From the NCBI GenBank assembly GCA_040767225.1, contig JAXGOY010000006.1, positions 1 to 50,082 of the forward strand: a stretch of 50,082 nt of DNA, in the 5' to 3' direction. Below the pieces are notes generated by a model. That model saw nothing but the letters and a program-made list of their open reading frames with translations, was not told the origin of the DNA and searched no databases. Of this stretch, positions 13,601 through 46,653 are shown piece after piece. The stretch is from Candidatus Dojkabacteria bacterium (lineage in GTDB: Bacteria > Patescibacteriota > Dojkabacteria > SC72). The position numbers and the translations under genes are program-made. Each line of letters opens with the position of its first letter. Position 1 is the stretch's first letter.

Positions 13601-15236
13601 GGGATCGGTACTTCGTATCTTTAGAAATGTTAACACAACAGGGGGTGTAGGAATAGATATCTTCAAAGGGGATAATACTCTTTCCGTAAATTCCCACTTG
13701 GGAGCAAATGGAGATACTTTTCTAAATGCAATCGTTGGCAATGTTGGTATTGGATTAACAAACCCTACATACCGCCTTCAATTACCTAATACTGCTAATA
13801 ATGCAGGAAAAGGACAAGCTAATGCATGGGTTACATATTCTGATATATCTTTAAAAGAAAATATACAGAATATAACTGGAGGATTAGATAAAATAATGGC
13901 ATTGAGAGGAGTTACCTTTGATTGGAAAGGACAAGGAGTAGCATCCTCAGGATTTATAGCTCAAGAGGTGGAATTAGTTATCCCTGATTTAGTATCTACA
14001 GATAGTAATGGTATTAAATCTTTGGATTATGGAAGATTTACACCATACTTAGTAGAAGCAATTAAAGAACAACAATTACAAATACAAACAGCATATAACA
14101 GGATTGAACAATTAGAAAATATAAATGAAAATAAAATAATAAGTATTACAACTCCAGGCTGGTATAGAATATCTAAACTAGATACGAATGATGATCATAG
14201 TAATATAAAAATAAATAATACAAGTGTAGGATCATCACAAAATCTAGTATTAAGCATAGACAGTACATTAAATAATCAAAATATTAATATAGTATCTAAT
14301 CTTACAACAGGAGAATATGATATTACTAAAGCAAGAATAAATAATGAGAATGGTATTAAATACTTAGAAATATATATACCAGAAGTAAATGAAAATAAAA
14401 TAAGTGTAAAAATAACTGAAAGTAGTAATTGGATAACTACTGATATTGTACAGATAACAGAAGAAGTTAATAATACACAAGAGTATGCATTAAATGGAAT
14501 ACTATTCGGTATTAGTGATAAATTGGAGGTAGAAGAAGATAATGTAAAGATAGCTGGGGACTTGCTATCACTCTCAGTTAATTCAAGTATAGGAGATAGT
14601 GCTAATAGATGGAATGATATATATGCAAAAGGAACAATAAGATTGGGAAGTGGTGCTGATGGAGAGGGAGCAATAAGATTTAATGTACAGACAAAAACTT
14701 TAGAGTTTAGTAATAACGGAGTTGAGTGGCTTTCAGTTGGGGATCTATCATCTCAGATGACTATATCTCCTGAGTATGCAGGAGCAATACTATTTGCAGA
14801 TGGAAGTGATAATTCTGGAATAATGACCTCTGATGCAGTAGAGGAAAGTGGTTCATTTAAGAACTATTATGAATGGGTATCCACTAAAGATACACCACAG
14901 GATTACGATATTCTTGTAAGAATTACTCTGCCTGCAGACTTCCTTGGCTGGAAGGAAGATGCAATATACTTAGACTTTATGACAGAAAACTCTGTAAGTA
15001 CTGATAATAACAGTGTAAACCTCTCCCTTATTGGTAATAGTGGTACTGATGTACAAATCACTGGGGGTATTAGCAAAATAGCTGGAGTATGGGAGAGAAT
15101 GAGTATTAAGGGAGCAGATATTACTCAATGCAATAGTGCAGGAGGAACATGTACACTTCGTATTTCCTTAACTTCAAGCATGGAGTACTTTACAAGAGTA
15201 GGAGATATAACTCTAAATTACAATAGATCTCTGTAA
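7620..15236 (+). CDS. Giant (2538 aa) secreted or surface protein, modular and tail-fibre/adhesin-like
   Basis: It has an N-terminal signal or anchor. The module-boundary motif GNVGIGTTSPxxKLEV recurs about 8 times. There are long Ser/Thr/Asn/Gly/Tyr-rich short repeats (xNTAxGYxAL), a 7-blade YVTN beta-propeller, a Peptidase_S74-like intramolecular chaperone domain, and a further C-terminal region of about 370 aa. Confidence 0.85.
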   Translation: MKKINCPNLAKNLFILLILSLVFAVFFRGSLYALSSDKINLQGKIVRNDTGHEGMNVIPGSPACVINGAGNDTCDFRVSYYTAITGGTLLLTEDFVNVEIGQFDGVFELSLGSGTITTTAQCRDGACNSPSEVISEYGDVYIELKFAPDGINLTETFTRMPLEASPYAIFSKFAEGAHDAFKLSTSISNGSLENPSAGMIYFDTGSSQLKVYNGAEWQALSAGSASCLWTDAGTYSYLTSTTDDLVLGGSTVNTGRFVFDMDAGSGSYFDVFNDDHSNKLFTILGSGNVGIGTATPGAKLEVGGSASTITNSTGNLTISTGGGNGNILLMPNGTGNVGIGTTNPDSRMEIVAPAYDGTGPSSFEIQNWLRLVQSPASGPRPILQVYGSSTWGNVVQFGSSITDFMSLLRLRDENEGLIFGSNAAGYVHRLSTSGQILSLKADRVNYAPTWPISVFNINTDQQNPVNRLFEINFPLIVKTAETSVASFRVRAINSQTSDLFQWQDNNSNSLGVINIQGNVGIGTTSPTHKLELATHTTAAGGIGFGTDVELYRSGANILSLASGDNLNLVSGNVQIGSTTILTSGRLVQAANGSASSPAFSFSADTNTGMYGTGSDVLRLVTAGADRVTIDANGNVGIGTTSPFAGFHVNGIPTSPRKIGAIIGESYQVNGVDFAVLGSNQEAGLIVSTRNSTVINLGPNLLGTYGRVGIASIAGGQSGSDRTTAVAGLAFNTGGGNSTGGIIGGYFLSSTSSTSAFTGTEYLYGVQTSADSRAGIQTVSSIVYGIYSTAYGAAERGDTTYAGFFNATGGLTNYGIYSAGGNNYFNGNVGIGTTSPSSKLVVNTGGYSTIKLQYNGTPVVDIFSNVSSNIFIGLDSGSAITSGTGNVALGDNALSATTIGTSNTAVGYFALDSNVAKQGSTAIGYQAMAYADNTTTQGLSYNTAVGYQALVGSATPSSNTGMYNTAIGHQSMTTNTTGSYNSALGVNTLINNTIGQYNVAVGYGALFTNVAKNASIAIGYEAMRYADNTTTTGTSGNIAVGYQALKGSTTASNNTGTNNIAMGYQSMYGNTSGYDNVMIGSYAGNANTTGMQNVAVGRDAFKSNVAKSNNVAIGYGAMLYAYNSASAGNSYNTALRSYALRGITTASNNSVTYNTSIGGQSGYSMTSGSNNALLGYYTGYAITTGSNNSLFGYSAGSNLTTGSNNIIIGANINADSATGSNQLNIGGAIKGDLSTGDVNITRNLGINGVAYTWPGSTNPYPSATISILNNNGSGGLSWSTFADLGLVSGTGSAGQVSYWSGTNSITGSDSFWWDSTNNRLGIGTNTPQASIDIAGATSTISNASGDITISPASLILSINGRVYQTGLGYSTYFGQYAGRVDDLSDRYNTGIGYSSLYNNSTGTKNAALGYYSLYSNTGSYNTAVGSNALRTNTSASYNTAVGYYSLYTNSTGTYNTALGYYSLYSNTGSYNSSLGSYSLYSNSSGTNNTSLGYYSLYSNTTGNYNVALGYQAGRYQADGSTALTDPENSIYIGYNAKGKDNNDNNSIVIGYNAVGLGANTVVLGNDSIVTTALKGNVGIGTTSPGSKLEVAGVMAATGINGFISSPYQIVAPKGLTGMGTGALISVGTTATGTNPRSIAVDPSGRFVYVTNFGSNNVQAYSINQSTGALISVGTTATGTNPRSIAVDPSGRFVYVTNFGSNNVQAYSINQSTGALISVGTTATGTNPRSIAVDPSGRFVYVTNFGSNNVQAYSINQSTGALISVGTTATGTNPRSIAVDPSGRFVYVTNFGSNNVQAYSINQSTGALISVGTTATGTNPRSIAVDPSGRFVYVTNFGSNNVQAYSINQSTGALISVGTTATGTNPRSIAVDPSGRFVYVTNFGSNNVQAYSINQSTGALISVGTTATGTNPFGVVVDPSGRFIYVINYELNNVQAYTINNFSAGSANFAGGVGAIEEIKITSKEENTVFTEIKTFKGYANETFISINPFTKDNTVGSVLRIFRNVNTTGGVGIDIFKGDNTLSVNSHLGANGDTFLNAIVGNVGIGLTNPTYRLQLPNTANNAGKGQANAWVTYSDISLKENIQNITGGLDKIMALRGVTFDWKGQGVASSGFIAQEVELVIPDLVSTDSNGIKSLDYGRFTPYLVEAIKEQQLQIQTAYNRIEQLENINENKIISITTPGWYRISKLDTNDDHSNIKINNTSVGSSQNLVLSIDSTLNNQNINIVSNLTTGEYDITKARINNENGIKYLEIYIPEVNENKISVKITESSNWITTDIVQITEEVNNTQEYALNGILFGISDKLEVEEDNVKIAGDLLSLSVNSSIGDSANRWNDIYAKGTIRLGSGADGEGAIRFNVQTKTLEFSNNGVEWLSVGDLSSQMTISPEYAGAILFADGSDNSGIMTSDAVEESGSFKNYYEWVSTKDTPQDYDILVRITLPADFLGWKEDAIYLDFMTENSVSTDNNSVNLSLIGNSGTDVQITGGISKIAGVWERMSIKGADITQCNSAGGTCTLRISLTSSMEYFTRVGDITLNYNRSL
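10230..12320 (+). repeat. Degenerate short coding repeats (about 14-15 aa, NTAxGYxAL/YSLYSN type), in two blocks of about 10230-11300 and 11780-12320
   Basis: The translated sequence shows periodic motifs such as YNTAVGYQAL, NIAVGYQAL, YNTAVGYYSLYTN and YNTALGYYSLYSN. Near-identical 40-nt segments occur around 11840-11880 and 11990-12030. They resemble the beta-helical head repeats of trimeric adhesins and tail fibres. Confidence 0.5.
12477..13442 (+). repeat. Seven tandem 138-bp (46-aa) YVTN beta-propeller blade repeats; the first six (12477-13304) are nucleotide-identical
   Basis: The unit GGTGCCTTGATCTCGG...CAACCAATCTACA recurs with a period of exactly 138 nt (starts 12477, 12615, 12753 and so on). 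It encodes GALISVGTTATGTNPRSIAVDPSGRFVYVTNFGSNNVQAYSINQST. The seventh copy (13305-13442) diverges after about 40 nt. Confidence 0.9.
13830..14130 (+). other. Peptidase_S74-like intramolecular chaperone auto-processing domain, located internally in the giant protein
   Basis: The sequence ...WVTYSDISLKENIQNITGGLDKIMALRGVTFDWK...GFIAQEVELVIPDLV...LDYGRFTPYLVEAIKEQQLQIQ matches the SDxxxK(x)NI ... GxIAQEV ... LxxAIKELxxxI pattern of phage tailspike and endosialidase C-terminal chaperone domains. Confidence 0.7.
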
Positions 15237-15237
15237 T

Positions 15238-18066
15238 ATGAAAAAAGAGAAAGAGAATGGTAAAACAAACAGGAGTGTTGCTAGGCATATACTGCATATC
15301 TTTGGTTTAATAGTATGTGCACTTTGTATATATATTCTTGTTATTTCTTTCTCAAAAAAAGAAAATGATAGTATAGTAAGAGCTGATAGTAATACATATT
15401 TTAGAAATGAAAATCCTAATTTTAATGTAGAGTTTATAAATGGGCAGTATATTAAATTTGAAACAGTATCTTCATATGTAAATCCCATAGAGCAAAAAGA
15501 GCCTACTGTATGGGAGAAGATAAAGGGTAAATTGCATATTAATCAAACAAAGAAAGGGGTACAGATATCACTTGTTGAAGTATCATATGACTCTGTGTTA
15601 GAGGAAATGAGTGGGAATAATGTAGGGGAGAGGGAGTTAAATAAAAGCATTAAGCTTGCAAAGATAGGCAGAGAACTTGATAGTGAGAGTGAAGTACCAA
15701 AAGATACTGTAATATCTAAGAATATATATGATGGAGTTGATATTCAGTATCAAATAATAAAGGGGAAAGGTCTTAAAGAAGAGATTGTTTTAAATGAGAT
15801 ACCTCAATATACAACTGAATGTGGCAAGGGAGAGTGTGTACTGCCTGTTAATAGATTTGTTTTTGAAATTGAAGTAGACGATGGCTTAACTATTAAAAAG
15901 AGTATTAGTGCAACTGATAAATATCCTAATGGAGTTGTATATATTGTTGATGGAAAGGGGAATTACTATGCCCACTTTCTTCCTGAATATGCAACTGATG
16001 CTGTTGGTATTAAAACAAGTAATGTTAAAGCTAGTATAGTAAAAAATGAAGATAAATATATATATGAGATAGTTTTAGACTCAAAGTGGCTGCTTGATAA
16101 AGATAGGGTGTTTCCAATAAAGATAGATCCAAGTATTGTTCATGATACACAGTTTGTGTTTGAGCAAGGGCAGTTTGATAGAGTTAAACTTAATGAGGTT
16201 ATGAATATACAGCTTGATAAGGCTTTGTCAGGGCAGTATACATCGCCTTCTGTTACTGTTGGAAGCAATGCTGTGGTTAAGGGTATTGAGTGGCAAAGTT
16301 TTGGTCAGGCAACTGAGGATAAGCAGGCTCCTTTTTCAAGATTAGATCTTGTAGTAGAAAACAACTTCGATAATGAGGGCTCTTTAGGGCTTGAGCAGGG
16401 AGAGAGCAGGCAGTTTACTGTAAACACTGATTCATCTGGATATGTAACTGTACAGTTTTGGTCTTACAAAAGGAGAATGTCTGAGGATAGTGAACTGTTT
16501 TCATCTAATTTAGGAAAACTCATAATTGAGAATGATAAATATGTATTTATTGATAGTAATAATATGTCCTATAATACCGAAATAGAAGTAGAGTATAACA
16601 GGTGGCAGTATATTACTATTGTCTTTGGTATAACAAACTCTAATGTAACAGTATATATTGATAGTAAAGAGTTTTCTGCTGATATGTCATACGGTTCTCA
16701 GAATAATTTAGGGAGTATACAACTTTTTGGAAGCGGGTATTTTGATGTTTTAAGAGTGTATGAAAGAATGCTTGCAAGTAATGAGGTTTTAAGTGATTCT
16801 GGATATTCTGATATATATTTTGAATATATGACAAGTAATGATAATATATCCTGGAGTAATTGGATATCAAAGTCACAGTATCCTATATCCTTAGCTTTTG
16901 AGAATGGGAATATGGATATAGTAGTAGATAGTGTTGATACTTCTAAGTACAATTTACTTTCACTTAAATTTCTTGCAAAAGAGGAAGGATATATAACTAT
17001 GGGTGGAAGTAAATTTAGTAATGGAATAGTTGATCAAGATATTCACAGCCTAGTAGATGCAGAAGGACAATTGGATAATACTGAGCAGATAAAGTATATT
17101 GATTTTGTATTTAAGCCCTCTAGTTTGCAGGATTCATGTCTACTTAGTGTTGGGGATGTGAATATTAAAGTACTGCAAACAGGAAAGGTAATAGTTTTGT
17201 ATGATGGTGAAAGCAACGAGTTGGCAGATTTATACATACCTCAAAGGAATAATTATCTTTCTATTTCTTTTTTAGACGATAAAACAGAAATATATTTAAA
17301 CGGCTGGCTTTCATTTAGTGGTGAGCCATATGTGTTAAATGCTAATGAGTACAAAATTGGTTTAGGATGTAGTGATATGCAGAATGCATTTGACGGTGAG
17401 ATTGAAAATGTAAGATACTCAGCTACTGCCCAAGATGAAGATGATATTTTAGAGTATCATACAATTGAAGAGAGAAAATATCCGCTTAAACCTATATTTA
17501 GAGCTACTTTGCAGAATAACAGTCAGATATTAAATGCTCAAAGCACCTCTTTTTCAATTACACAGCAGGCCTTTGGTGCTGATAATTATGTTGTAACTCT
17601 TAACAAAGGGGATACTATTGTTGTTTCGCAAGATGAGTATACAGCTTCTGGTGTTGTGAGCTTTGTTGATAATGATACAGGGCTTGTAACTGTAAATGAG
17701 TGGGATAGCAGCAGTACATTTCCTAATGAGGGGTTTAGTACATCTGCAGAGGTTCTTAAATGGCAAGAAGAATATATACCAATAGTGTTAAATAGCAGTT
17801 TAAATATACAGTACGGTGGTGACCTACAAATTAAGGATATGAGCTTAATATCTGCATTTGATAGTGGGGAGAGTATTAATATACAAGAAGGTAGCAAGTA
17901 TGTTAAATATAGGCTCATATTTATATCGAAATATCCTGATATCTCTGCATCTATCTCTAGTGTAACAATTAATATTGAAGAAAGTGGTCCACAGATGGAG
18001 CAGATAATGAGACATGGCAAGTGGTTTAATGAGAGTGGCAAACAGCCGTACTGGTGGGCTCAATAA
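15238..18066 (+). CDS. Large membrane-anchored protein with two LamG/concanavalin-A-like lectin domains
   Basis: The ATG lies 1 nt after the giant gene's TAA (TAATATG). There is an N-terminal TM segment (ILHIFGLIVCALCIYILVI). Two motifs are typical of Laminin_G_3-type domains: ...FDVLRVYERMLASNEV... and ...FDGEIENVRYSATAQDEDDILEY. Confidence 0.6.
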   Translation: MKKEKENGKTNRSVARHILHIFGLIVCALCIYILVISFSKKENDSIVRADSNTYFRNENPNFNVEFINGQYIKFETVSSYVNPIEQKEPTVWEKIKGKLHINQTKKGVQISLVEVSYDSVLEEMSGNNVGERELNKSIKLAKIGRELDSESEVPKDTVISKNIYDGVDIQYQIIKGKGLKEEIVLNEIPQYTTECGKGECVLPVNRFVFEIEVDDGLTIKKSISATDKYPNGVVYIVDGKGNYYAHFLPEYATDAVGIKTSNVKASIVKNEDKYIYEIVLDSKWLLDKDRVFPIKIDPSIVHDTQFVFEQGQFDRVKLNEVMNIQLDKALSGQYTSPSVTVGSNAVVKGIEWQSFGQATEDKQAPFSRLDLVVENNFDNEGSLGLEQGESRQFTVNTDSSGYVTVQFWSYKRRMSEDSELFSSNLGKLIIENDKYVFIDSNNMSYNTEIEVEYNRWQYITIVFGITNSNVTVYIDSKEFSADMSYGSQNNLGSIQLFGSGYFDVLRVYERMLASNEVLSDSGYSDIYFEYMTSNDNISWSNWISKSQYPISLAFENGNMDIVVDSVDTSKYNLLSLKFLAKEEGYITMGGSKFSNGIVDQDIHSLVDAEGQLDNTEQIKYIDFVFKPSSLQDSCLLSVGDVNIKVLQTGKVIVLYDGESNELADLYIPQRNNYLSISFLDDKTEIYLNGWLSFSGEPYVLNANEYKIGLGCSDMQNAFDGEIENVRYSATAQDEDDILEYHTIEERKYPLKPIFRATLQNNSQILNAQSTSFSITQQAFGADNYVVTLNKGDTIVVSQDEYTASGVVSFVDNDTGLVTVNEWDSSSTFPNEGFSTSAEVLKWQEEYIPIVLNSSLNIQYGGDLQIKDMSLISAFDSGESINIQEGSKYVKYRLIFISKYPDISASISSVTINIEESGPQMEQIMRHGKWFNESGKQPYWWAQ

Positions 18067-27740: not shown

Positions 27741-29108
27741 ATGAGTATTCATTCTGAGTATATTGCTCCTAAGGGCTGGAAGCCTAAGAATCCTGATGAG
27801 GACTACCTTATTACAGAGCTTGATATAGAGCTTGCAGATGGTGTACCAGAGGATAAATTTGAGGAGGTGGCAGCAAGCTGTGCTGCTGAAAGCTCAACTG
27901 GTACATGGACTAAGGTTGATGAAGGGAAGCATTCTGGTACAAAGCTTGCTAAAAAGCTTAGAGCTGTTGCATATGATTTGGATCCTAAAACAAAGACATT
28001 TAAGATTGCATACAAAAAAGAAATATTTGAACCTAGCAATATGGCAGGTATATTTGCTGGAATTGCAGGAAATATTGATAGTATGAAGATGATTAAAGCA
28101 TTTAGATTGCTTGATGTAAGATTTCCCAAAAGCCTTGTTCAAAGTTTTCCTGGGCCACAGTTTGGTATTGATGGAGTTCGTGAATTTATGCAGATAGAGA
28201 GAGGACCTTTGCTTTGTACAGTCCCTAAGCCAAAGATAGGGAGAACTGCAAAAGAGCAGGCATATCTTGCTAAAATACTTTTTACTGCTGCAAATGGAGA
28301 GTTTCAGGGTATTAAGGATGATGAAAATCTTACAAGTTTGTATTTTAACAAATTTGAAGATAGATGTAAGCTTGTACATGAAGTACAAAGAGATGTTGAG
28401 CAGAAAAGCGGGAAGAGAAAGATGTATTTGTGTAATGTTACACACTCTGATATAGATGTAATGCTTGATAGGGCTGATATGATTAAGGAAAATGGAGGAA
28501 GATGGATGATGATGGATGTTATAGTTACTGGTTTTGCTGCTGTTCAAACTATGAGAAAGCATAATCCTGGGTTGGCAATACATGCACACAGGGCTATGCA
28601 TGGACTGCTTGATAGGGAATCAGGGGCTGGAGTGTATGATAAAGGGGTTATTGTGGATTTTTCGATGTCTATGGTGGTTATTGCTAAAATCATGCGTCTT
28701 TTGGGCGTAGATTCGCTTCATGGTGGTGCACCAAAGGGTAAGATGGAGAACTATAATGAGCCTATGCTTATACAGCAGGCACTTCAAGAGGATATTACAC
28801 CTGTAACTGATATGACACTTGGTCAGAACTGGTATGGAATGAAAGGAGTATGGCATACTGCATCAGGTGGTCTTCATCCTGGAACAATAGGGGAGTCAAT
28901 AACAAGACTTGGAGAAAACCTCATTGTACAAGCGGGAGGCGGTGTACTTGGTCATCCTTGGGGGATTGAAGCAGGTGTTGAGGCTATGGTACAGGCAAGA
29001 GATATTGCAATGCAAAAAGAGGATTTAAATAAATGGATAATAGAGCATCCTGATAGTGCACTTGCAAAGGCAGCACACTATTGGGGATTTGATCCTAAAT
29101 TTGTGTAA
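27741..29108 (+). CDS. rbcL: Ribulose-1,5-bisphosphate carboxylase/oxygenase large subunit, form II/III- or III-like
   Basis: Motifs seen are AAESSTGTWT, PKPKIGR, GIKDDEN (carbamylated Lys plus metal ligands), HAHRAMHG, SGGLHPG and AGGGVLGHPWG. No small-subunit gene is nearby. Confidence 0.9.
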   Translation: MSIHSEYIAPKGWKPKNPDEDYLITELDIELADGVPEDKFEEVAASCAAESSTGTWTKVDEGKHSGTKLAKKLRAVAYDLDPKTKTFKIAYKKEIFEPSNMAGIFAGIAGNIDSMKMIKAFRLLDVRFPKSLVQSFPGPQFGIDGVREFMQIERGPLLCTVPKPKIGRTAKEQAYLAKILFTAANGEFQGIKDDENLTSLYFNKFEDRCKLVHEVQRDVEQKSGKRKMYLCNVTHSDIDVMLDRADMIKENGGRWMMMDVIVTGFAAVQTMRKHNPGLAIHAHRAMHGLLDRESGAGVYDKGVIVDFSMSMVVIAKIMRLLGVDSLHGGAPKGKMENYNEPMLIQQALQEDITPVTDMTLGQNWYGMKGVWHTASGGLHPGTIGESITRLGENLIVQAGGGVLGHPWGIEAGVEAMVQARDIAMQKEDLNKWIIEHPDSALAKAAHYWGFDPKFV

Positions 29109-38123: not shown

Positions 38124-39287
38124 ATGAGTATTTTTTCTAAAACAGGAAAACAAGAGATGAAATTAAGTGAGGTTGTTTCCTTGATGTCAAAGTTAAGACT
38201 CCCCATATCTCTTGTCTTTACACCTGTTAATTTAAAGGAAGAGAAAGAAAAATTTTTAAATTCTGATTTGTATGAGCCTGTATTTAAGTATAGGGGGGTA
38301 AGAAATAATAATGAAGAAATATTAAAAAAGCTTTCTTCTTTAAAGCTGATTACTGATGTGGATCCAAGAATCTCCGACTTCTATATTCAACTAATTGCTT
38401 CAAAAAATGATTCTAATATTCTTATGAATGCAGTAGGAAATAACGAGCTTGTAACAGAGATGTCATATAAAAAGTATGGAGTACCAACTCCACTGCTTTT
38501 TAGAAATGCATCAAGAATTTTGAGAGGAAATACTAGTGGCTACAATACAATTAAGTCTCCTGTTATTAAAGAAAGTGATATTTTCCATTATGAAAAAATA
38601 AGAGAGGTTTTTAATCTTGTCTTTGAGCATTTTGGTTTGAATGATTGGCAGGTTCAAGCTTCATCTAAAATACAGAAAAATGGTGTTAAGGTGGGAGTAA
38701 AAAGTAAATGGGTTATTATGGATCCTAATATAGAGAGGTCTAAATTTAAGTTAAAAAAGACCTTAGTACATGAGGTTGGTACACATGTTTTTAGGTCTGT
38801 AAATGGACTGAATACTAAAATTGAAGCACTTTCAAAACCTAATCTACCAAAATATCTTGATATTGAGGAAGGTTTAGCCATATGGAATGAGTCTGATATG
38901 AACCTTCTTACATTAAAGAATTTTAAAAAGAGTGCTTCTTTTGTTTATGCAATATATATTGGTGAACAGTTGTCATTTAGGCAGTTGTATAATGCACTTT
39001 TAGCTGTTTTCCCTAAAAATACAGCATTTAATATTACATATAGGGTAAAAAGAGGGCTAGGGGATACAAGTTATCCAGGAACATATACAAAAGATATTGT
39101 TTATTTCAGGGGGTTTAAAAAGGTTAAGAAAGCATTAGAAAAAGACAAATCATTATATGAAAAACTTTATGCTGGTAAAATAGATCTTAAACAGTGTGAA
39201 TGGGTAGATGATGGCCTTATACCAAAAGCTAAAATAGTTCCATCTAAGCAGGAGTGGAATGATTTATTTAGGAAGGTGGGAATTTAA
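38124..39287 (+). CDS. DUF1704 / 'QEGLA-motif' / MATCAP-like putative metallocarboxypeptidase
   Basis: The ATG immediately follows the mreB TAA. HEVGTH (nt 38769-38786) and IEEGLAIWNE (EEGLA at 38865-38879) match the HExxxH...(Q/E)EGLA signature of the DUF1704 family. Confidence 0.7.
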   Translation: MSIFSKTGKQEMKLSEVVSLMSKLRLPISLVFTPVNLKEEKEKFLNSDLYEPVFKYRGVRNNNEEILKKLSSLKLITDVDPRISDFYIQLIASKNDSNILMNAVGNNELVTEMSYKKYGVPTPLLFRNASRILRGNTSGYNTIKSPVIKESDIFHYEKIREVFNLVFEHFGLNDWQVQASSKIQKNGVKVGVKSKWVIMDPNIERSKFKLKKTLVHEVGTHVFRSVNGLNTKIEALSKPNLPKYLDIEEGLAIWNESDMNLLTLKNFKKSASFVYAIYIGEQLSFRQLYNALLAVFPKNTAFNITYRVKRGLGDTSYPGTYTKDIVYFRGFKKVKKALEKDKSLYEKLYAGKIDLKQCEWVDDGLIPKAKIVPSKQEWNDLFRKVGI

Positions 39288-40228
39288 TCACTAAAGGCTG
39301 TAATTATGGCTTCAGCAATGTTAACTGGCTCTCCTTTTATTTTTGTCTCATATGCCTTAAATCCAGGATGTAAACTTATTTCCTGTAGTAATGGCTTTCC
39401 ATGCATTTCCATAATGTCAACGGCAATAAAATCTGCTTCTAAAATGCGTGTAACATTCTGCACAAAATTTTTAATCTCCTCTTCGGGATTGTTGTACATA
39501 GAATAAATTCCCTTACTCACGGTCATGAAACTTTTGTCTTTTCTTCTTTTCCATCCTCCTATGATTTCTCCTTTTTTTACAAACACTCTCATATCTGTAT
39601 CACTATCCGATAACTCTTGTATAAACATATTAGAAAGGTCTAAGTTTTTAATGTTATCTTTCTTAAAATCATCTGGAGTATCAATTTTGAAGATATTCTT
39701 TTTTATTAGCTCTTTTCCGTTTATCTCTTCAATTCTATTTTCTCCAGTACAGCTTTTAAGTATTAATGGATATGAATTAAGGATATCTCTTGGAGCCAAA
39801 TAGTTACCATCTGTTCTGTAATATGAGTTAAAGTAGGGGATATTATTTTGATGACAAAACAATGCTAGTGCAATTTTGTTGTAATATGGAAGTTTTTTAA
39901 TAGTTTTACTGTTTTGTACTAATATTTTGTTTTCTGGGTTGTTTATATTATGTTGATCAGTATATTCCACAATGTATCTTTTAAGCTGATATTGTGATTC
40001 GTTATGTAAATCATGTCCTCTGAATATGATATGACTGTATTTTCGTATATCTTCTCCTTTTACTTTTATTACTGTTTCACCATCGATAAATTCAAATTCA
40101 AGCTCATCAAAGTAGGCTAGAGTATGGGGGATATTTTTTTTATTCAATTCTTCCATTATTCTAATATCAGCACTTGCAATTTTTTCTTGTGTTATTCTTT
40201 GTCTTTTATCAAGTATTAAATATCTCAT
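39284..40228 (-). CDS. ATP-grasp ligase D, divergent RimK-like
   Basis: DMRVFVKKGEIIGGWKRR and FIAVDIMEMHGKPLLQEISLHPGF resemble the RimK-type ATP-grasp core. The start overlaps the stop of ligase C (TAATG). Confidence 0.55.
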   Translation of the reverse strand: MRYLILDKRQRITQEKIASADIRIMEELNKKNIPHTLAYFDELEFEFIDGETVIKVKGEDIRKYSHIIFRGHDLHNESQYQLKRYIVEYTDQHNINNPENKILVQNSKTIKKLPYYNKIALALFCHQNNIPYFNSYYRTDGNYLAPRDILNSYPLILKSCTGENRIEEINGKELIKKNIFKIDTPDDFKKDNIKNLDLSNMFIQELSDSDTDMRVFVKKGEIIGGWKRRKDKSFMTVSKGIYSMYNNPEEEIKNFVQNVTRILEADFIAVDIMEMHGKPLLQEISLHPGFKAYETKIKGEPVNIAEAIITAFSD

Positions 40229-41925
40229 TATTTTAATATTTTTATCTTATCTATTAATTTTTTCTTTTTGTATCTCTTTACAATCTTCATATTCTCTTTA
40301 TCATTGCTTAAATCTTTTGTAATACATAGTAGATTAATGTAATCAAATCCAAGACCATGTTCTATTACTTCGTTCCAGTTTCTGTAGTGTAGAATAATGG
40401 TGTCTAGGTAAGCATTACATTTAATTGCTTCTGTAGCTCTCCATCTTGTTAAGTTTCTGTTTACTTCTATACCATTGATTAAGTACCTATCATCAATTAA
40501 CTCTCCTACATTTTCATTTTCTTTGATAATGTTCTTTTTTCTAAGCAGAGTTGATACATCATTATTACTTTGTCCTACTACAACAAACCTTTTACATTTG
40601 TTTTCCTTAAGAAGCTCATCTATGTATATATCTGCAACATATCCACGCTGAGTACCTAGTACTGGATACATATTAAGATATGTTTCAGGCATTGTATTTA
40701 CTTCAAGTATTGCTCCATTACTCTTTGTGAGTGGCTTAGATATATCTTTACACATAATATCAACGCCAAGTGTAAATGCATGCATTGATGTAGCTATAGT
40801 TTCAACAATGCTCTTTATTTCCTTACATACACTATCAGTAAAATCTTGTGTAATACCTCCCTGACTCATACTTGCGACCTTTCTTACATAAACTCTTTGT
40901 CCTTTCTCAGGGATTGAGTCTAATGTAAGATTTTGCTGTGTAAGGTACTTTATTAATGGTTCATCAATCTTTATAGGCTTTAAAATATGTGCAGGATTTT
41001 TAATATCTCTTCTTGGATCTGAATTTTCCTGCTCAATTAGTTCTTTAATACTTTTGCTTCCATCTCCAGTCACAAAAGCAGGGATTCTCTTTGTTGCAAT
41101 TTGAAGCTTTCCATTTATAACAAGGAGCCTGTAATCTTCTCCGTATACCTGCTCTTGAATCATTATTTTTTCTTGCCATGCCTGTCTTACTCTGGTATCT
41201 ATTGCAGCTTTTGCATAATCAAAAGCATCTTGCGCCTTTTGAATAGTATCTATTCCTACAGTAACACCCTTGCCAGCTGTTAAGCCTGTTGGTTTTATAA
41301 CTACAGGTTTTTCATATTTATCCCAGACCTTTTTAATATATGATTTATTTGGGAGTAATTCCCATTTAGGAAGTGTCATACCAAGTCTTTGTAAAAAAGT
41401 ATTAGTTATCCATTTATCCCTTTGTAATTTCTGTGCTATATATGCATCTTTTGTTGAAGATGCAGAGCATGTTATCTGTGATCCTCTCCCGCATCCTAAA
41501 GTGAAGTATCTATTTGCTCCTTTGCCTATTTCTTCTTTTTCTGTAATCATTTCAGCAGATTCAATAATTGAAGGGGTTATTTCAATATTATTTTTCATAC
41601 AAGACTGAAGAAGCGAAATAGTAGACATTGATTTAATTCTTTTATTAATCAAAACATTTATAATTGATTCTTTTGCTTGGTTTAAAGTAATCTCTTGTTT
41701 TGAAAGTTTCTGCAATGTTTCTGCAGATTCTCTCCATAGAAATGGAAGTTTTGAAGATATTGTTAAAAGAGAAGGAGAGATAGTGTATTCATTTATAAAG
41801 ATAGTATGCAGAGATGAAATTGTATCAAGAAGTTCAGTTATATCTCCAATGTTGTTTCCATTTAAAGAAATTTTAACTCTTGATATCTCAGATTCTAGAT
41901 TTAGCCCTTGTATAGTTTGAATCAT
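40228..41925 (-). CDS. ATP-grasp ligase C, similar to the cyanophycin synthetase N and G domains, with a truncated and degenerate M-domain remnant
   Basis: CphA-like strings are LGCGRGSQITCSASSTKDAYIAQKLQRDKWITNTFLQRLGMTLP, VVIKPTGLTAGKGV, DYRLLVINGKLQIATKRIPAFVTGDGSKSIKELIEQENSDPRR and ILEVNTMPE. Where CphA has (I/V)xVTGTNGKTT this protein has FVVVGQSNNDVST. Confidence 0.65.
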   Translation of the reverse strand: MIQTIQGLNLESEISRVKISLNGNNIGDITELLDTISSLHTIFINEYTISPSLLTISSKLPFLWRESAETLQKLSKQEITLNQAKESIINVLINKRIKSMSTISLLQSCMKNNIEITPSIIESAEMITEKEEIGKGANRYFTLGCGRGSQITCSASSTKDAYIAQKLQRDKWITNTFLQRLGMTLPKWELLPNKSYIKKVWDKYEKPVVIKPTGLTAGKGVTVGIDTIQKAQDAFDYAKAAIDTRVRQAWQEKIMIQEQVYGEDYRLLVINGKLQIATKRIPAFVTGDGSKSIKELIEQENSDPRRDIKNPAHILKPIKIDEPLIKYLTQQNLTLDSIPEKGQRVYVRKVASMSQGGITQDFTDSVCKEIKSIVETIATSMHAFTLGVDIMCKDISKPLTKSNGAILEVNTMPETYLNMYPVLGTQRGYVADIYIDELLKENKCKRFVVVGQSNNDVSTLLRKKNIIKENENVGELIDDRYLINGIEVNRNLTRWRATEAIKCNAYLDTIILHYRNWNEVIEHGLGFDYINLLCITKDLSNDKENMKIVKRYKKKKLIDKIKILK

Positions 41926-41932
41926 GCTGTTA

Positions 41933-42907
41933 TTAAATCATTTTAGATATGTACTCTTGAATTGGAATTGCAACTCTAACTACCTCGCCTTCGTCAACTT
42001 TGTAGTGAAGTCTTAGGCCAGGATTATAATTTATTTCATTTACAGCACATTTCACAGGTTTTGTTATATCCTGGGTAATTATATCAACACCTCCAAACTT
42101 TGCTCCTATTGCATGTACTGCATTTACAGCAATATCTTTGTAATATTGATGTGTTTGTGAGGCACACTCCTGAGTAGTTCCTCCTGTTGTAAGATTGCAG
42201 TTGTATCTAAGTATTACCTCTTCATTTTCTTTAGGAATATATTTAAGACTTATACCCTTGTTCTCAAGTCTTTGATATACCTCATTATCAATGCGAATTG
42301 GCTTCATTAAATTCTTTTTTCTTTCTATATTTTTCTTTTTTATCAATGTTTGTATATTATCTTTTCCATTGCCAACTACAAAAGCAGGTTTTCTTCTTAC
42401 AATACCAATTACTCGATTCCCAAGTACTAGAAGTCTATAATTATCACCTTCTACAAACTCCTCACCAATTACTTTATGACTTCCCTTTGATGCACGGAGT
42501 GCTGAATTAAAGGCATTAATAACCTGTTTTTTATTTTGTGGAAGTAGTGATACACCAATTCCACCTAACTGTTGTGAAGGCTTAATTACAATATTTTTAT
42601 ATTCCTTAAAAAACCTTAACGCCTCATCTTTATTGTTTAGTGTAACTTGCTTAGGAACTGGAATGCTAAAGGAAGAAAGTATTTTATTTGTAAGATTCTT
42701 TCTTTTTGCTATTGTTGTACTTGGTGTATTTGTAAGTGGAGTAGCAGTATTAATTATATACCAGTGTTTATTTTCATTTTCAAACTTTGCAAGAAGACCA
42801 TGTACTAAAACAGTATATTTTATATTTAACTCATCTGCTGCTTCTAAATAGTAAGCAAGATGTACATTTCCTGCTTCTTTTAAGTATTGTTCGTATGATT
42901 TTGTCAT
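41933..42907 (-). CDS. ATP-grasp ligase B, cyanophycin synthetase G-domain-like only
   Basis: TATPLTNTPSTTIAKRKNLTNKILSSFSIPVP, VIKPSQQLGGIGV, NYRLLVLGNRVIGIVRRKPAFVVGNGKDNIQTLIKKKN and EINYNPGLRLHYKVDEGEVVRVAIPIQEYI are present. The protein ends where the CphA G domain ends. Confidence 0.65.
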   Translation of the reverse strand: MTKSYEQYLKEAGNVHLAYYLEAADELNIKYTVLVHGLLAKFENENKHWYIINTATPLTNTPSTTIAKRKNLTNKILSSFSIPVPKQVTLNNKDEALRFFKEYKNIVIKPSQQLGGIGVSLLPQNKKQVINAFNSALRASKGSHKVIGEEFVEGDNYRLLVLGNRVIGIVRRKPAFVVGNGKDNIQTLIKKKNIERKKNLMKPIRIDNEVYQRLENKGISLKYIPKENEEVILRYNCNLTTGGTTQECASQTHQYYKDIAVNAVHAIGAKFGGVDIITQDITKPVKCAVNEINYNPGLRLHYKVDEGEVVRVAIPIQEYISKMI

Positions 42908-42921
42908 ATGTTTAGTATATA

Positions 42922-44400
42922 TTAAAATGTATTGGTTGTATCTATTAGGTAACCTGTAAGATCGGTCTTACCAATAATTACTGGCTGAGAGATATCAGAG
43001 ATTTCTGTTGATATGAACTCTGTAATTTTTATCTGATCTTCTATCTTTATAGGGATATCAAATACAGGTCTTACTTTTATTTCTCCATTTTCTACAATTT
43101 TTGCAAGTCTTTTTATACTGCTATTCTTTATTATTTCTTCCTCATTTTTATCAATAAAGTCCTGAGCATCTTTAAGACTTTCAAATTTCTTAGGTATTCC
43201 ATATTTTTCAAACTGTTTATGGTCATTAAAATATCCAATTCTGTTAGCAAGTTTTGAATCAATTCTTGATGTAAGAACTCCTGTATCCATATATGCTTTT
43301 ACAAGCTCTCTTTTACTATCTTTGTATTTTTCAAGTTTAGACCTGTCTGCCTTTTTGTCGTATACATATATTCTTTCAACAATATTAAGAACCTTTCTTC
43401 CGCTTATTGCTTCTATACTTTCTTCTACTTCACCTCCAAAGAGGCTTTTTGCCACTCTTATTCCATGTTTTATACCTTTTATTTTTACATCTTTAACTTT
43501 TTCTAATCTCCATCTCAATCCTGCTTGATTTGCGACCTGAATACCAAGTCCTGGTCTTGCATTTACTTCAAATACGACAGGGCCTTTATCAGCGTCAAGT
43601 GCAATATCTACACCTACATACCCTAAACCTGTCACTTTTTGACATTTTAGGGCTATCTCAAGTAATGTATTCCATTGAGGTATCTGTATACCACTTAAAG
43701 GTTTGTTTTCTTTTAAATCTAATGTTGAATCTATTACTTCATATGTATCACTAATTAAAGAATTAGGCTTCATATGCATAGAGTAGGTGGTTATTCCTGT
43801 TCCTATATCTATTCCTGTACATATTGCGCCTGCATGAAGATTAGCAGTACCATTTGATCTTTTTGTTGGTAATCGTAGCATTGCCATAATGGGAACAAGA
43901 TTAAAGCAGATTATTCTTACATCGGGAACTCCTTTATATGAATATTGCTTAAGTAGTGGGTCTGTCTTTATTCTTTCCTCTATTATTGCGATATCATTTC
44001 CAAAACCCATAGAGAATCTTCCTTCTAATATGCTCTCTATATGAAGTATGATATCCCTTTGTGTCATTACTGTTCCATTAGGTCTTATCCATTCATATTT
44101 TCCTTTTTTCTTGCCATAGAATACAATTATTCCATTTCCTCCTGTCCCTGCATTTGGTTTTATAACAAAGCTTTTGGGAAGACTATCCCAATCAAGGAAT
44201 TCAAGCTGTTTTTTTGTTCTTATTAACTTATATACCTCAGGTGTTTGTATAAGCTCCTTTTTAAGAACTCTTTTAGTGTATATTTTATTATCTGCAATAG
44301 CCTTGGCAGATTGAGAGTTAAATGGCCTTACATATTCCTGATTTCTTCTATTTAGGCCAAGAACTTCCTTCTTTAATTTTATTGGATTATTACTTTTCAT
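42922..44400 (-). CDS. ATP-grasp ligase A, alpha-L-glutamate-ligase-like (RimK-related), fused to a C-terminal retropepsin-like domain
   Basis: LGLNRRNQEYV, ADNKIYTKRVL, VIKPNAGTGGNGI, VRIICFNLVPIMAMLRLPTKRSNGTANLHAGAICTGIDIGTG and GLGYVGVDIALDADKGPVVFEVNARPGLGIQVAN match the 'alpha-L-glutamate ligase-like' family as I recall it. The C-terminal roughly 150 aa carry KAYMDTGVLTSRID and ...PVIIGKTDLTGYLIDT, as in RimK-associated retropepsin-like ('Zn_protease') proteins. Confidence 0.7.
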   Translation of the reverse strand: MKSNNPIKLKKEVLGLNRRNQEYVRPFNSQSAKAIADNKIYTKRVLKKELIQTPEVYKLIRTKKQLEFLDWDSLPKSFVIKPNAGTGGNGIIVFYGKKKGKYEWIRPNGTVMTQRDIILHIESILEGRFSMGFGNDIAIIEERIKTDPLLKQYSYKGVPDVRIICFNLVPIMAMLRLPTKRSNGTANLHAGAICTGIDIGTGITTYSMHMKPNSLISDTYEVIDSTLDLKENKPLSGIQIPQWNTLLEIALKCQKVTGLGYVGVDIALDADKGPVVFEVNARPGLGIQVANQAGLRWRLEKVKDVKIKGIKHGIRVAKSLFGGEVEESIEAISGRKVLNIVERIYVYDKKADRSKLEKYKDSKRELVKAYMDTGVLTSRIDSKLANRIGYFNDHKQFEKYGIPKKFESLKDAQDFIDKNEEEIIKNSSIKRLAKIVENGEIKVRPVFDIPIKIEDQIKITEFISTEISDISQPVIIGKTDLTGYLIDTTNTF

Positions 44401-45055
44401 CCTCTCTTGTAGTAAATCTAAATCTAAAAAGATCCTTTATTCTTAATCCTTTAAAAGTACCAAGTAAAATATTAAATAGTGTTAGGAGAGGAATAATCCA
44501 TAGATTGTTTAATATGTAGTTAGAGATAATGTCCCTTGTTATTACAAACCATCCTGCAATTGCAACTAATATTGTTCCCAGTAGTGTAACAACAGATGTT
44601 TTTATTGACTTCTTAATATATTGTCTTATAAAGAAATCTGATAGTGTAGCTATACATATAAAGGCAAGAGGTGGAATGTTTGACATATTTTCTAAACCTA
44701 AGCCAAAGGTGTCTACTATTACAAAGAAGAGAACTAATACCATTGATAAAATAGTATAATTTGCAGCTATTCTTGTTATATAGTGCATTCTTACTCTTCT
44801 TAATACAGAGTATGAAAGAAGGGAAGTTAGTATAACAACAAAAGTAATTGCTAAACCATATTTTAATCCAGTATATGAATATGCTATAGCTAATATTATT
44901 GGTGCATATATTCCATATGTCTTACTTCCTACTATATATCTTGCAATACTTACAATTGTAGAAACAATACAAACAGATATTAAAAGTTCTAATACAGTCT
45001 GAGATACCCCATGATCAACAATCCATTGTGTAAAAGCTACAGAATTATTATTCAT
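44390..45055 (-). CDS. 7TM membrane protein related to the 7TM module usually fused to inactive transglutaminases (7TM_transglut-like)
   Basis: It is polytopic. ARYIVGSKTYGIYAPIILAIAY and the C-terminal LLGTFKGLRIKDLFRFRF match the GxxTFGxFxP...GRYTGLRLxELxRFR pattern of that family as I recall it. The 3' end overlaps the ligase A start by 11 nt. Confidence 0.6.
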   Translation of the reverse strand: MNNNSVAFTQWIVDHGVSQTVLELLISVCIVSTIVSIARYIVGSKTYGIYAPIILAIAYSYTGLKYGLAITFVVILTSLLSYSVLRRVRMHYITRIAANYTILSMVLVLFFVIVDTFGLGLENMSNIPPLAFICIATLSDFFIRQYIKKSIKTSVVTLLGTILVAIAGWFVITRDIISNYILNNLWIIPLLTLFNILLGTFKGLRIKDLFRFRFTTREDEK

Positions 45056-45089: not shown

Positions 45090-45119
45090 ATTATACTTTG
45101 TAAAGCATATTATTGTCGA
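45090..45119 (-). promoter_or_regulatory. Candidate promoter of the 7TM/ATP-grasp operon
   Basis: On the minus strand, TCGACA (45119-45114) is followed by an 18-nt spacer and TATAAT (45095-45090). Its -35 box overlaps the -35-like TTGTCG of the divergent plus-strand promoter. Confidence 0.4.
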
Positions 45120-45258: not shown

Positions 45259-46653
45259 ATGAGCTTAAGTAAAAACTTAGAGTACCTAAGAAAAAGCAAG
45301 AAAATGTCTCAAGAAGATCTTGCTTTTAAATTAGGTGTGTCAAGGCAGGCAGTATCTAAATGGGAATCTGGTGCTGCATATCCTGAAACAGAGAAAATAA
45401 TTGCAATATGTAAGCTTTTTGATTGTTCACTTGATGAACTTATGAAAGATGATATTGCAGAGTTAAGAGAAGATGAGAAGAGAAGATATACATTTAATGA
45501 CTTAATTGAAGAGGTCTCATCTCTTTTACAAAAGACTGTAGACATATTTAATCAAATGGATAGAAAAACAAGATTTAGATTTTTCTTTGAGCTTGTAGTA
45601 GCATGTGTTGTTATTTTCTTTGTTGTAAAGATACCTTTTAATTATATTGCTTCACTTGGTTACAATGTGTTTTTTGCAATAGGGGGAGATACAGCTCAAG
45701 TACTTAAAGCTATATGGAGATTTTTAGTAGATATTACATATTTTATTACTTCATTACTAATATTTATTTCTGTTTATAAAGCAAAATTTCTTAATATTGC
45801 GAATTTTAGTAAGAAGTCTACCCAAACCCAAATAGAAGGAGAGAAAGAAGAAAAGGAGGAAGGTAATAAAGAAGAGAAAATTGTTAGACATGATTTTGGT
45901 GTATTTTCTTTTTTAGGAAAAGTATTTGTTTTTTGTTTAAAGGTTTTTGTAGCATTTTTATCTCTCTTTATACTTTTCTATATGCTTGTTGCCGTTGCAG
46001 GCTTAGTGATTGTTATATCTTGGATGTTTGATGGTGTGTTTCTTTTTAGTTTAGTTCTTTTTGCATTATCATTTATTCTTCTTTCTACTATTATCATTTA
46101 TGTAATTTACAATTTTATAATTAATAGAAGAAGTAAGTGGAAAAAGGTTTTTACATTTCTTTTAATATCCTTTATTGGTCTTGGTGTAAGTATGGGAGTA
46201 GGGGCTATTGAAATGAAAGAGTTTACATTTACTAGTTCTCCTCGTCAGGATATAGTTCTGGATAAAAAGAGTGAGACTTTTGAGATGACAGATTCTTTAA
46301 TAATTGAAAATTATGGGTATGAGATTGTATATATTGAAGATGAGAAGATGCAGGATATGGTAAGGGTAGAAGTTGCATATTACGATGGTTTTGAGGATGT
46401 AGAAATAGTTCAAAATGGAAACAGTATATTTATTAATTCAAGGCAAGAAAACTTTTCTATTCCTAAAATTTATGAGATGTTAATAAAAGATTTAAAGGAG
46501 AAGGAAATTCATGTTGATTACCGCTATCTTTCAGATCTTTATGTAACAGTGTATACAAGCAAAGAGAATATTGAGAAGATACAGAACAATATTGAGCAAC
46601 AGCAGACAAAAGATGAGTATGATGTTGGTGTACTAGAAGAAAAGCCACTTTAA
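45259..46653 (+). CDS. XRE-family helix-turn-helix protein fused to a multi-pass membrane region and an extracytoplasmic C-terminal domain
   Basis: The N-terminal LRKSKKMSQEDLAFKLGVSRQAVSKWESGAAYPETEKIIAICKLFDCSLDELM is an HTH_3. It is followed by several hydrophobic helices, an acidic EGEKEEKEEGNKEEK linker and a C-terminal domain of about 150 aa. Confidence 0.75.
   Translation: MSLSKNLEYLRKSKKMSQEDLAFKLGVSRQAVSKWESGAAYPETEKIIAICKLFDCSLDELMKDDIAELREDEKRRYTFNDLIEEVSSLLQKTVDIFNQMDRKTRFRFFFELVVACVVIFFVVKIPFNYIASLGYNVFFAIGGDTAQVLKAIWRFLVDITYFITSLLIFISVYKAKFLNIANFSKKSTQTQIEGEKEEKEEGNKEEKIVRHDFGVFSFLGKVFVFCLKVFVAFLSLFILFYMLVAVAGLVIVISWMFDGVFLFSLVLFALSFILLSTIIIYVIYNFIINRRSKWKKVFTFLLISFIGLGVSMGVGAIEMKEFTFTSSPRQDIVLDKKSETFEMTDSLIIENYGYEIVYIEDEKMQDMVRVEVAYYDGFEDVEIVQNGNSIFINSRQENFSIPKIYEMLIKDLKEKEIHVDYRYLSDLYVTVYTSKENIEKIQNNIEQQQTKDEYDVGVLEEKPL

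Follow-up and report, generated by a model that had tools for sequence, protein, structure and literature searches.

Two cyanophycin synthetase-like ligases in a conserved four-ligase operon of Candidatus Dojkabacteria

Introduction

In cyanophycin synthetase (CphA), the G domain adds aspartate and a Mur-ligase-like M domain, with the P-loop GTNGKT and its Lys499, adds arginine. Here we analyse two CphA-like ligases, B and C, encoded on the minus strand of a 50,082-nt stretch of DNA from a Candidatus Dojkabacteria bacterium (contig JAXGOY010000006.1 of assembly GCA_040767225.1), called the window throughout. We tentatively propose that they are two distinct ligases of the CphA-G type, predicted to be catalytically competent, in a four-ligase, ribosome-independent system whose product would be something other than canonical cyanophycin.

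A CphA relative with an inactive M domain is already known. CphA2, in which this domain is truncated and forms a dimer interface, still makes cyanophycin, using β-Asp-Arg dipeptides (PMC10273328). The dead-M architecture is therefore not new. The literature that we searched does not describe the lineage of ligase C, its substrate pocket, its pairing with a stand-alone G-type ligase or the surrounding Rlo/RimK/MATCAP context; neither CphA-like enzymes of Dojkabacteria nor bacterial homologues of QEGLA/MATCAP turned up there.

The neighbourhood of the two genes recalls a second described system, RloABC of Pseudomonas aeruginosa, with its RloC-type ATP-grasp ligase, RloB-type seven-transmembrane (7TM) protein and RloA/RimB-type retropepsin. 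RloB has been reported almost only in Proteobacteria, and in Pseudomonas the defects of Rlo-retropepsin mutants are suppressed when RloB or RloC is lost as well (PMC11957051). Such suppression suggests that the ligase and the 7TM protein together make something that needs processing by the protease.

Ligases B and C are CphA-like

An earlier sequence-only reading had taken two adjacent open reading frames (ORFs) of the window for CphA-derived ligases lacking a functional M domain. Both lie where it placed them on the minus strand, and both are CphA-like: their best profile, PDB and fold matches are cyanophycin synthetases, and all three motif strings that it had quoted from the CphA G domain and the region preceding it are found in B as well as in C.

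The top NCBIfam match of ligase C is the cyanophycin synthetase model NF010623 (256 bits; residues 137-537 against profile positions 181-573 of 871), while ligase B aligns with TIGR02068 at 212 bits (residues 21-319 against positions 165-469). These scores, 242-256 bits for C and 210-212 bits for B, fall below the curated cut-offs of the two CphA models (850 bits for TIGR02068, 877 bits for NF010623). Among PDB sequences, C is closest to CphA1 (7lg5, E 4e-43) and then to CphA2 (8fxh, E 4e-42); the top match of B is again CphA1 (7lgm, E 8e-37). Chance can be dismissed as the source of these matches.

The AlphaFold2 model of ligase C, computed from 47 homologues, reaches a mean predicted local distance difference test score (pLDDT) of 90 and a predicted TM-score (pTM) of 0.88. 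Its top Foldseek match in the PDB is Gloeothece CphA2 (7ta5; E 2.6e-38, TM 0.71/0.69), in an alignment of about 598 columns that takes in both whole chains, with the N, G and truncated M domains. CphA1 and StCphA2 rank next, and GshF matches the G domain only (about 380 columns). As modelled, the architecture of ligase C is thus an N domain, a G domain and a truncated M domain, with mean identities across the C family of 54%, 67% and 55%, respectively.

Ligase B has neither an N nor an M part. It terminates at the end of the G domain (residue 318, facing residue 477 of SuCphA1), just as the sequence-only reading had it. Its AlphaFold2 model (pLDDT 87) is best matched by substrate-bound TeCphA1 (7wae; TMq 0.78, E 6e-25), with GshF near-equal (3ln6, E 2.4e-24) and with Ddl, RimK and PsnB trailing at about 1e-11. 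By sequence, the ATP-grasp module of GshF gives 177 bits against 212 bits for CphA.

Taken over both proteins, Foldseek matches to CphA have TM values of 0.7-0.78 and E values of 1e-24 to 1e-38, as opposed to about 1e-9 to 1e-12 for Ddl and RimK. A generic ATP-grasp identity for either protein was considered and rejected, the Ddl and RimK matches being at least 12 orders of magnitude weaker than those to CphA and GshF. The sequence-only reading had named best homologues of the D-Ala-D-Ala ligase or glutathione synthetase type as an outcome that would count against it, and this is not what the matches show: Ddl, RimK and GshB are far weaker, and GshF comes near-equal for B only. These data support placing B and C in the CphA-G/GshF subgroup of ATP-grasp enzymes, outside the Ddl, RimK and GshB types.

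Kinship with GshF also suggests another role. B and C might be single-turnover ligases for a small di- or tripeptide metabolite (an osmolyte or a thiol), like the modules of GshF (3LN6/3LN7) or Ngg, which belong to the same ATP-grasp subgroup. The models of these two families come next after CphA for both proteins (165-177 bits for GshF, 113-125 bits for Ngg), the fold of B is nearly as close to GshF as to CphA, and in Pseudomonas the related Rlo operon has a link with tolerance of osmotic stress (PMC11957051). We nevertheless consider such a role quite unlikely. Only the ATP-grasp parts of the GshF and Ngg models were matched, and the Pfam/NCBIfam search found no GshA or GNAT partner domain in B or C, whereas in GshF and Ngg such a domain is fused to the ligase. 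GshF has methionine at the positions of G456 and R458 of CphA1 and lacks the CphA-specific N and M parts, whereas C retains a conserved, polymerase-typical N domain and an M scaffold. In addition, the operon holds two peptidases of chain-acting kinds.

Catalytic residues are kept, substrate pockets diverge

Functional residues were taken from TeCphA1 (PMC9427784; 7wac) and StCphA2 (PMC10273328; 8fxh) and mapped through HMMER alignments; invariance was counted over 47 homologues for the C family and 44 for the B family. Both ligases keep the ATP-phosphate lysines, the two γ-phosphate/acyl-phosphate arginines and the Mg ligands of the G domain. TeCphA1 residues K220, K261, R309, R323, E450 and N452 correspond to K171, K211, R266, R280, E408 and N410 of C and to K70, K109, R158, R172, E291 and N293 of B, all of them invariant in their families.

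Judged from the same alignments, the substrate pockets of B and C differ. B has the aspartate-pocket residues of CphA1, with N238, G297, R299 and R172 at the positions of N394, G456, R458 and R323 (motif EINYNPGLRLH); N238, G297 and R299 are also invariant in its family. In C the pocket is altered: N394 is replaced by S352, G456 by E414 and R458 by Y416, each invariant, within the motifs ASMSQGG and EVNTMPExYLN. The tyrosine corresponds to Y457 of StCphA2 (PGVYMH), while the pocket Ser and Glu are very rare elsewhere in a set of 212 related domains. The acid that binds the primer (E215 in TeCphA1, D212 in StCphA2) is absent from both proteins, being K166 in C (Lys or Asn across the family) and an invariant T65 in B.

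The substitutions in C could also be taken as a sign that either B or C, and most likely the latter in view of its altered oxyanion and nucleophile site, is a non-catalytic scaffold or regulator of the other ligases; besides the Glu, Tyr and Ser at the positions of G456, R458 and N394, it has Ala or Gly in place of H267. We judge this highly improbable. The residues that handle ATP, Mg and the acyl phosphate are invariant in 47 homologues down to about 53% identity, and again in a sister group at about 40%. The changed residues are themselves invariant, which is what a new specificity, rather than decay, would lead one to expect.

The M-domain remnant of ligase C

Past its G domain, ligase C runs on for about 120 aa, and this stub can be aligned to the opening ~125 aa of the M domain of CphA1. 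The correspondence includes the conserved GLGF motif, of which G524, G526 and F527 are invariant in the C family. Opposite the CphA1 P-loop VTGTNGKTT, ligase C reads VVVGQSNNDVST, where GQSNND stands for GTNGKT and Asp456 occupies the position of the essential Lys499. The loop is thus destroyed, as the sequence-only reading had claimed, and by column counts the family motif at this site is GQ(S/T)xxD(I/L)PTLLR. An unrelated intact domain in the C-terminal region, which would have spoken against that reading, was considered and rejected, because both sequence and fold match the region to the beginning of the CphA M domain. It is a real M-domain remnant whose P-loop has been lost.

Decay into junk was likewise ruled out for the stub, which is conserved at the level of the N domain (55% versus 54%) and has five invariant residues (G451 and L461 besides the three named above); it is under selection. 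A structural role is the simplest one to propose, because the M domain of CphA2 forms the dimer interface. In the full-length alignment, ligase C stops 55-100 residues short of the ends of CphA2 and about 270 residues short of that of CphA1.

The sequence-only reading had concluded from the loss of M activity that the product would be an unbranched backbone. This does not follow, as CphA2 with its dead M domain makes cyanophycin from β-Asp-Arg (PMC10273328). The conclusion also overlooked the context of the genes: branching or other steps could come in trans from the two further ATP-grasp ligases, the two peptidases and the 7TM protein encoded alongside.

Ligase C appears to form its own clade

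In a neighbour-joining tree of 212 G-type domains, bootstrap values are 90 for the C family, 99 for C together with its sister group and 100 for the B family. The deeper nodes do not exceed 25, and the clade of C and its sister group sits apart from that of StCphA2. Ligases B and C are 29% identical, and neither is closer to the other than to CphA1. The two had been read as paralogs that may differ in specificity: the difference between their pockets stands, but at this identity, and with no pairing in the tree, they are not recent paralogs.

An exhaustive profile search returned about nine clusters, at 50% identity, of full-length C homologues. The sister group makes up four clusters of 515-543 aa, with the same pocket motifs and a more degenerate C-terminus; beyond it, profile scores fall to multi-domain proteins and CphA1. 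A scan of a genome collection with the sister-group alignment gave a single Dojkabacteria locus and no wider spread. All named homologues of B and C are from Candidatus Dojkabacteria (candidate division WS6). By these sequence comparisons, C appears to belong to a clade of its own, confined to Dojkabacteria and distinct from CphA2. The descent from a full-length CphA that had been proposed agrees with the M remnant of C. For B it is not demonstrable, as the G domain of this protein resembles GshF almost as much as CphA and the tree has little support at depth.

How far C resembles CphA2 (7TA5, 8FXH/8FXI) matters for a further explanation, in which C is a divergent CphA2 that re-polymerises scavenged or recycled β-Asp-Arg into cyanophycin with the assistance of B. 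The two share the layout of N domain, ATP-grasp G domain and truncated, dead M domain (B lacks N and M), and 7ta5 is the top structural match of C. Both also have an aromatic residue at the position of CphA1 R458, which is Tyr in C, and the loop RKVA..S.GG. Of the residues probed by mutagenesis in StCphA2, R308, D362 and S395 are kept as R266, D321 and S354, and the equivalent of R389 is kept as well; D212, N393 and G455, by contrast, are changed to K166, S352 and E414. The N393A mutant of StCphA2 is inactive, and in GcCphA2 D212 is essential and forms a salt bridge to the primer Arg (PMC10273328); by these residues C fails as a CphA2. It is also 55-100 residues shorter, it scores 256 bits against the CphA NCBIfam model where a true CphA2 scores 335 bits, and in the tree its clade with the sister group (bootstrap 99) stands apart from that of CphA2. 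No cyanophycin genes lie nearby, and CphA2 has been described as cyanobacterial (PMC10206079). We regard this explanation as very unlikely.

Other relatives recovered in the same searches extend the picture. A CphA-like clade of ~665-aa proteins (P0323, P0328, P0358; 583 bits to the CphA model) has a truncated M domain with a degenerate P-loop (VTGLGNTT, VTGTGDRR), apparently one more case of lost M activity, separate from those of CphA2 and C. By this count, loss of the M domain has occurred repeatedly, namely in CphA2, the ~665-aa clade and the C family.

A set of uncurated multi-domain relatives (P0253, P0255, P0256, P0258, P0259, P0260) includes fusions of two or three CphA-G-like ATP-grasps with an acylphosphatase, an adenylation domain, LPG_synthase_C or aminoacyl-transferase-like domains. 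In P0253, G-like ligases are fused to CapA/PGA_cap, a poly-glutamate capsule protein, and an M stub is present too. Given such tandem-domain fusions elsewhere, multi-ligase arrays of the CphA-G type appear to be a recurrent design for building peptides.

A conserved operon with Rlo, RimK and MATCAP relatives

Ligases B and C are encoded within five tightly packed minus-strand genes at 39284-45055, separated by gaps of 7-14 nt or overlapping by 1-11 nt (Table 1). Between ligase C and the RimK-like gene, stop and start codons share 1 nt.

Table 1. Coordinates of the ligase genes, their domains and their neighbours in the window
Feature	Position	Strand	Description
Ligase B	41933..42907	minus	324 aa; stand-alone CphA-G/GshF-type ATP-grasp domain
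Ligase C	40228..41925	minus	565 aa; CphA-type N domain, ATP-grasp G domain and vestigial M domain, as modelled
Ligase C, N domain	41551..41925	minus	residues ~1-125; within the whole-chain structural alignment to CphA2/CphA1 (~600 columns)
Ligase C, G (ATP-grasp) domain	40606..41508	minus	residues 140-440; by mapping onto 7wac and 8fxh
Ligase C, vestigial M-domain stub	40231..40593	minus	residues 445-565; Rossmann-like alpha/beta, conserved, without Walker loop
Ligase C, former M-domain P-loop site	40549..40584	minus	VVVGQSNNDVST, residues 448-459; opposite VTGTNGKTT of CphA1
Divergent RimK-like ATP-grasp ligase	39284..40228	minus	314 aa; PF08443 34.5 bits, TIGR00768 40 bits, below cut-off
RloC-like ATP-grasp + retropepsin fusion	42922..44400	minus	492 aa; ATPgrasp_ST/TIGR02291 at residues ~10-303; RimB/RloA-like at ~365-492, DTG at 372
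7TM membrane protein	44390..45055	minus	221 aa; PF14402 65 bits; RloB model positions 311-504 of 508 only
MATCAP/QEGLA-family metallopeptidase	38124..39287	plus, convergent	387 aa; PF08014 106 bits, TIGR02421 124 bits
Candidate sigma-70-like promoter	45090..45119	minus	TCGACA-18-TATAAT, 11/12; 35 nt upstream of 7TM start

The gene order (7TM, RloC-like/retropepsin, B, C, RimK-like, with the convergent MATCAP-like gene) is the same in relatives whose C proteins are 59%, 53% and 42% identical to that of the window. In the sister lineage the six genes are clustered but reordered (7TM, RloC, B, RimK-like, MATCAP, C-like). The operon, about 7 kb between ribosomal-protein genes and mreB, is present in every sampled Dojkabacteria lineage, and the cluster stays beside rplJ-rplL even where its orientation is switched.

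In the RloC-like fusion, the ligase half scores 219 bits with Pfam and 286 bits with TIGR02291, whose cut-off is 314 bits; the C-terminal part matches RloA3 and RloA2. The retropepsin DTG is kept in four of five loci. A divergent relative of the fusion (locus L004, 5418-6935) is without a D(T/S)G motif, so that its protease half may be inactive. The metallopeptidase has intact HEVGTH and EEGLA motifs and aligns with human MATCAP (7z5g), including the HEIGTH and EEGLA of the latter. The 7TM protein is an RloB-type 7TM module without the transglutaminase-like domain. A 2009 amidoligase paper by Iyer and Aravind probably covers this 7TM/ATP-grasp/retropepsin neighbourhood.

The likeness to RloABC extends to the 7TM protein, the retropepsin, an adjacent QEGLA/MATCAP gene and probably the ATP-grasp ligase, with its score below the TIGR02291 cut-off (PMC11957051). 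Three differences stand out: RloA is secreted with a signal peptide, whereas the Dojkabacteria retropepsin is fused to a cytoplasmic ligase; the 7TM protein lacks the periplasmic, inactive transglutaminase domain of RloB; and the operon has three extra ligases, B, C and the RimK-like protein. As for a role in defence, PADLOC gave no match for any of the six proteins, and that candidate was rejected.

At its C-terminus the 7TM protein has a short tail, predicted to be cytoplasmic and in many cases acidic: it ends in TTREDEK in the window (44390-44410), in NTKEDDK in a related locus (L001), and in the sister lineage the encoded tail (locus L007, about 3300-3336) is SEEEEEEEREEE. Such tails recall the Glu-rich C-termini that serve RimK and tubulin ligases as primers. 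When compared across loci, the tails are not consistently acidic.

The ligases could, then, act on a protein and lengthen its C-terminus, in the manner of RimK on ribosomal protein S6 or of tubulin ligases on tubulin, with the retropepsin and the MATCAP-like enzyme removing the tail; the target would be the tail of the 7TM protein or a ribosomal protein. The cluster indeed combines a RimK-like ligase, a RimB/RloA-like retropepsin and a homologue of the tubulin detyrosinase MATCAP, and RimB is known to trim the poly-Glu tails made by RimK (PMC11957051). The short, frequently acidic tails, that of the sister lineage among them, and the lasting proximity to rplJ-rplL despite changes of orientation also fit. 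On the other side, known CphA-type enzymes work on free polymers rather than proteins, and C keeps the N domain that in CphA1 tethers a free polymer. No target has been identified: the 7TM tails are inconsistent in charge, and L7/L12 was rejected as a candidate since its C-termini show no consistent pattern. On balance protein tailing is unlikely, though it deserves serious consideration.

In two studies, rRNA-depleted metatranscriptomes yielded contigs that cover the cluster and run across the RimK-like/C, C/B/RloC and RloC/7TM junctions; it is apparently transcribed as an operon. The candidate promoter upstream of the 7TM gene (Table 1), the best sigma-70-like match, is possibly that of the operon; it is a consensus match only, of a kind that is not enriched over shuffled sequences. 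Metatranscriptome contigs of two runs (X27 and X31) connect position 40273 with 38310 by way of a 29-nt hairpin-like filler, AAACACTTAATTAAAGTGTTTATTACAAA. The joint was not found in four DNA runs, which makes a contig chimera or a rare variant of the strain the probable explanation. Divergently from the operon, at 45259-46653, an Xre-type helix-turn-helix domain is fused to a long multi-pass membrane region; this gene is present in L001 and L002 but absent or replaced in L004 and L006, and therefore is not part of the core module.

A proposed non-cyanophycin product

We now return to our tentative proposal of two distinct ligases in a four-ligase system. Its product is most likely an oligo- or poly-amino acid other than cyanophycin, and we rank a free poly- or oligo-amino acid above a small peptide metabolite, and the latter above a protein tail. 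Cyanophycin itself is disfavoured because the acid that binds the primer Arg is lost in B and C, and the Asn/Gly/Arg triad in C. It is disfavoured further because no cyanophycin genes (cyanophycinase/cphB, CphA1) were found in the 50-kb window or the fetched relative loci.

The retention of the N domain, the M stub and a CphA2-like aromatic residue suggests that C extends a chain with a non-standard nucleophile. It would be polymerase-like, and its nucleophile, as in CphA2, would not be a simple free amino acid bound through the α-carboxylate; the M stub would serve oligomerisation as it does in that enzyme. B may add an acidic or ordinary α-amino acid. The RloC-like and RimK-like ligases could add further residues, possibly at side chains or termini, and so make up in trans for the missing M activity. 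Trimming of the product would fall to the fused retropepsin and the MATCAP-like carboxypeptidase, and the 7TM protein would anchor, export or sense it at the membrane.

A bolder version, which we consider doubtful, views the whole operon as a split, trans-acting relative of CphA. Here C would polymerise a backbone or a preformed unit, and B, the RimK-like and the RloC-like ligases would add residues; the resulting unknown branched or mixed poly-amino acid, trimmed by the peptidases, would go to the 7TM protein as a class-wide component of the envelope or of storage.

Several points weigh against the two-ligase proposal. His267 in the P-loop(G) of CphA1, catalytically important in that enzyme, corresponds to A217 in C (Ala or Gly in the family) and to G115 in B; GshF is likewise without an equivalent. 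In C an invariant Glu occupies the position of Gly456, a residue whose backbone contributes to the oxyanion site of CphA1 and, in CphA2, contacts the terminal carboxylate (PMC9427784, PMC10273328); the Glu may point to different chemistry or even to a role in regulation. Specificity calls from individual residues are unreliable in ATP-grasp enzymes, and polymerase activity is not distinguishable from single addition by sequence. The search for cyanophycinase was confined to the window and the fetched loci, and the metatranscriptome contigs may hold DNA and are strandless.

Bacteria of the candidate phyla radiation have very small genomes and little biosynthesis, yet an operon of ~7 kb with four ATP-spending ligases is kept here. 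That every sampled Dojkabacteria lineage retains something so costly points to an important product of the cell. B and C represent two uncharacterised CphA-G lineages with altered pockets, and are candidates for new amino-acid polymerases or ligases. The association with RloB, RloC, retropepsin and QEGLA relatives also links CphA-type enzymes to the Rlo system of Pseudomonas and Vibrio. If the split-synthetase version were true, it would offer a first biochemical handle on the products of Rlo/QEGLA-type operons in Proteobacteria.

Other genes of the window

The window has a G+C content of 30-38%, and near-identical DNA is carried by wastewater, anaerobic-digester and biogas metagenomes. Its remaining genes, as identified by a Pfam search, include Rho, LeuRS, ArgRS, ProRS, ComEA/EC, a RuBisCO-like protein, UvrA, MreB and rplKAJL, a content typical of a candidate-phyla-radiation bacterium. 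Unusual items include, for a bacterium of small genome, a serpin gene at 3736-4971 (full-length; PF00079, 359 bits), adjoining one for an M23/LysM peptidase (2152-3510). The RuBisCO large-subunit homologue (27741-29108; PF00016 200 bits, PF02788 91 bits) has as neighbours ProRS and small ORFs without a Pfam match. At 7620-18066, a protein of 2538 aa carries beta-propeller/NHL/lactonase repeats and an S74 intramolecular-chaperone domain; together with the 942-aa ORF that follows it, which has no Pfam match, it probably forms a giant surface protein pair.

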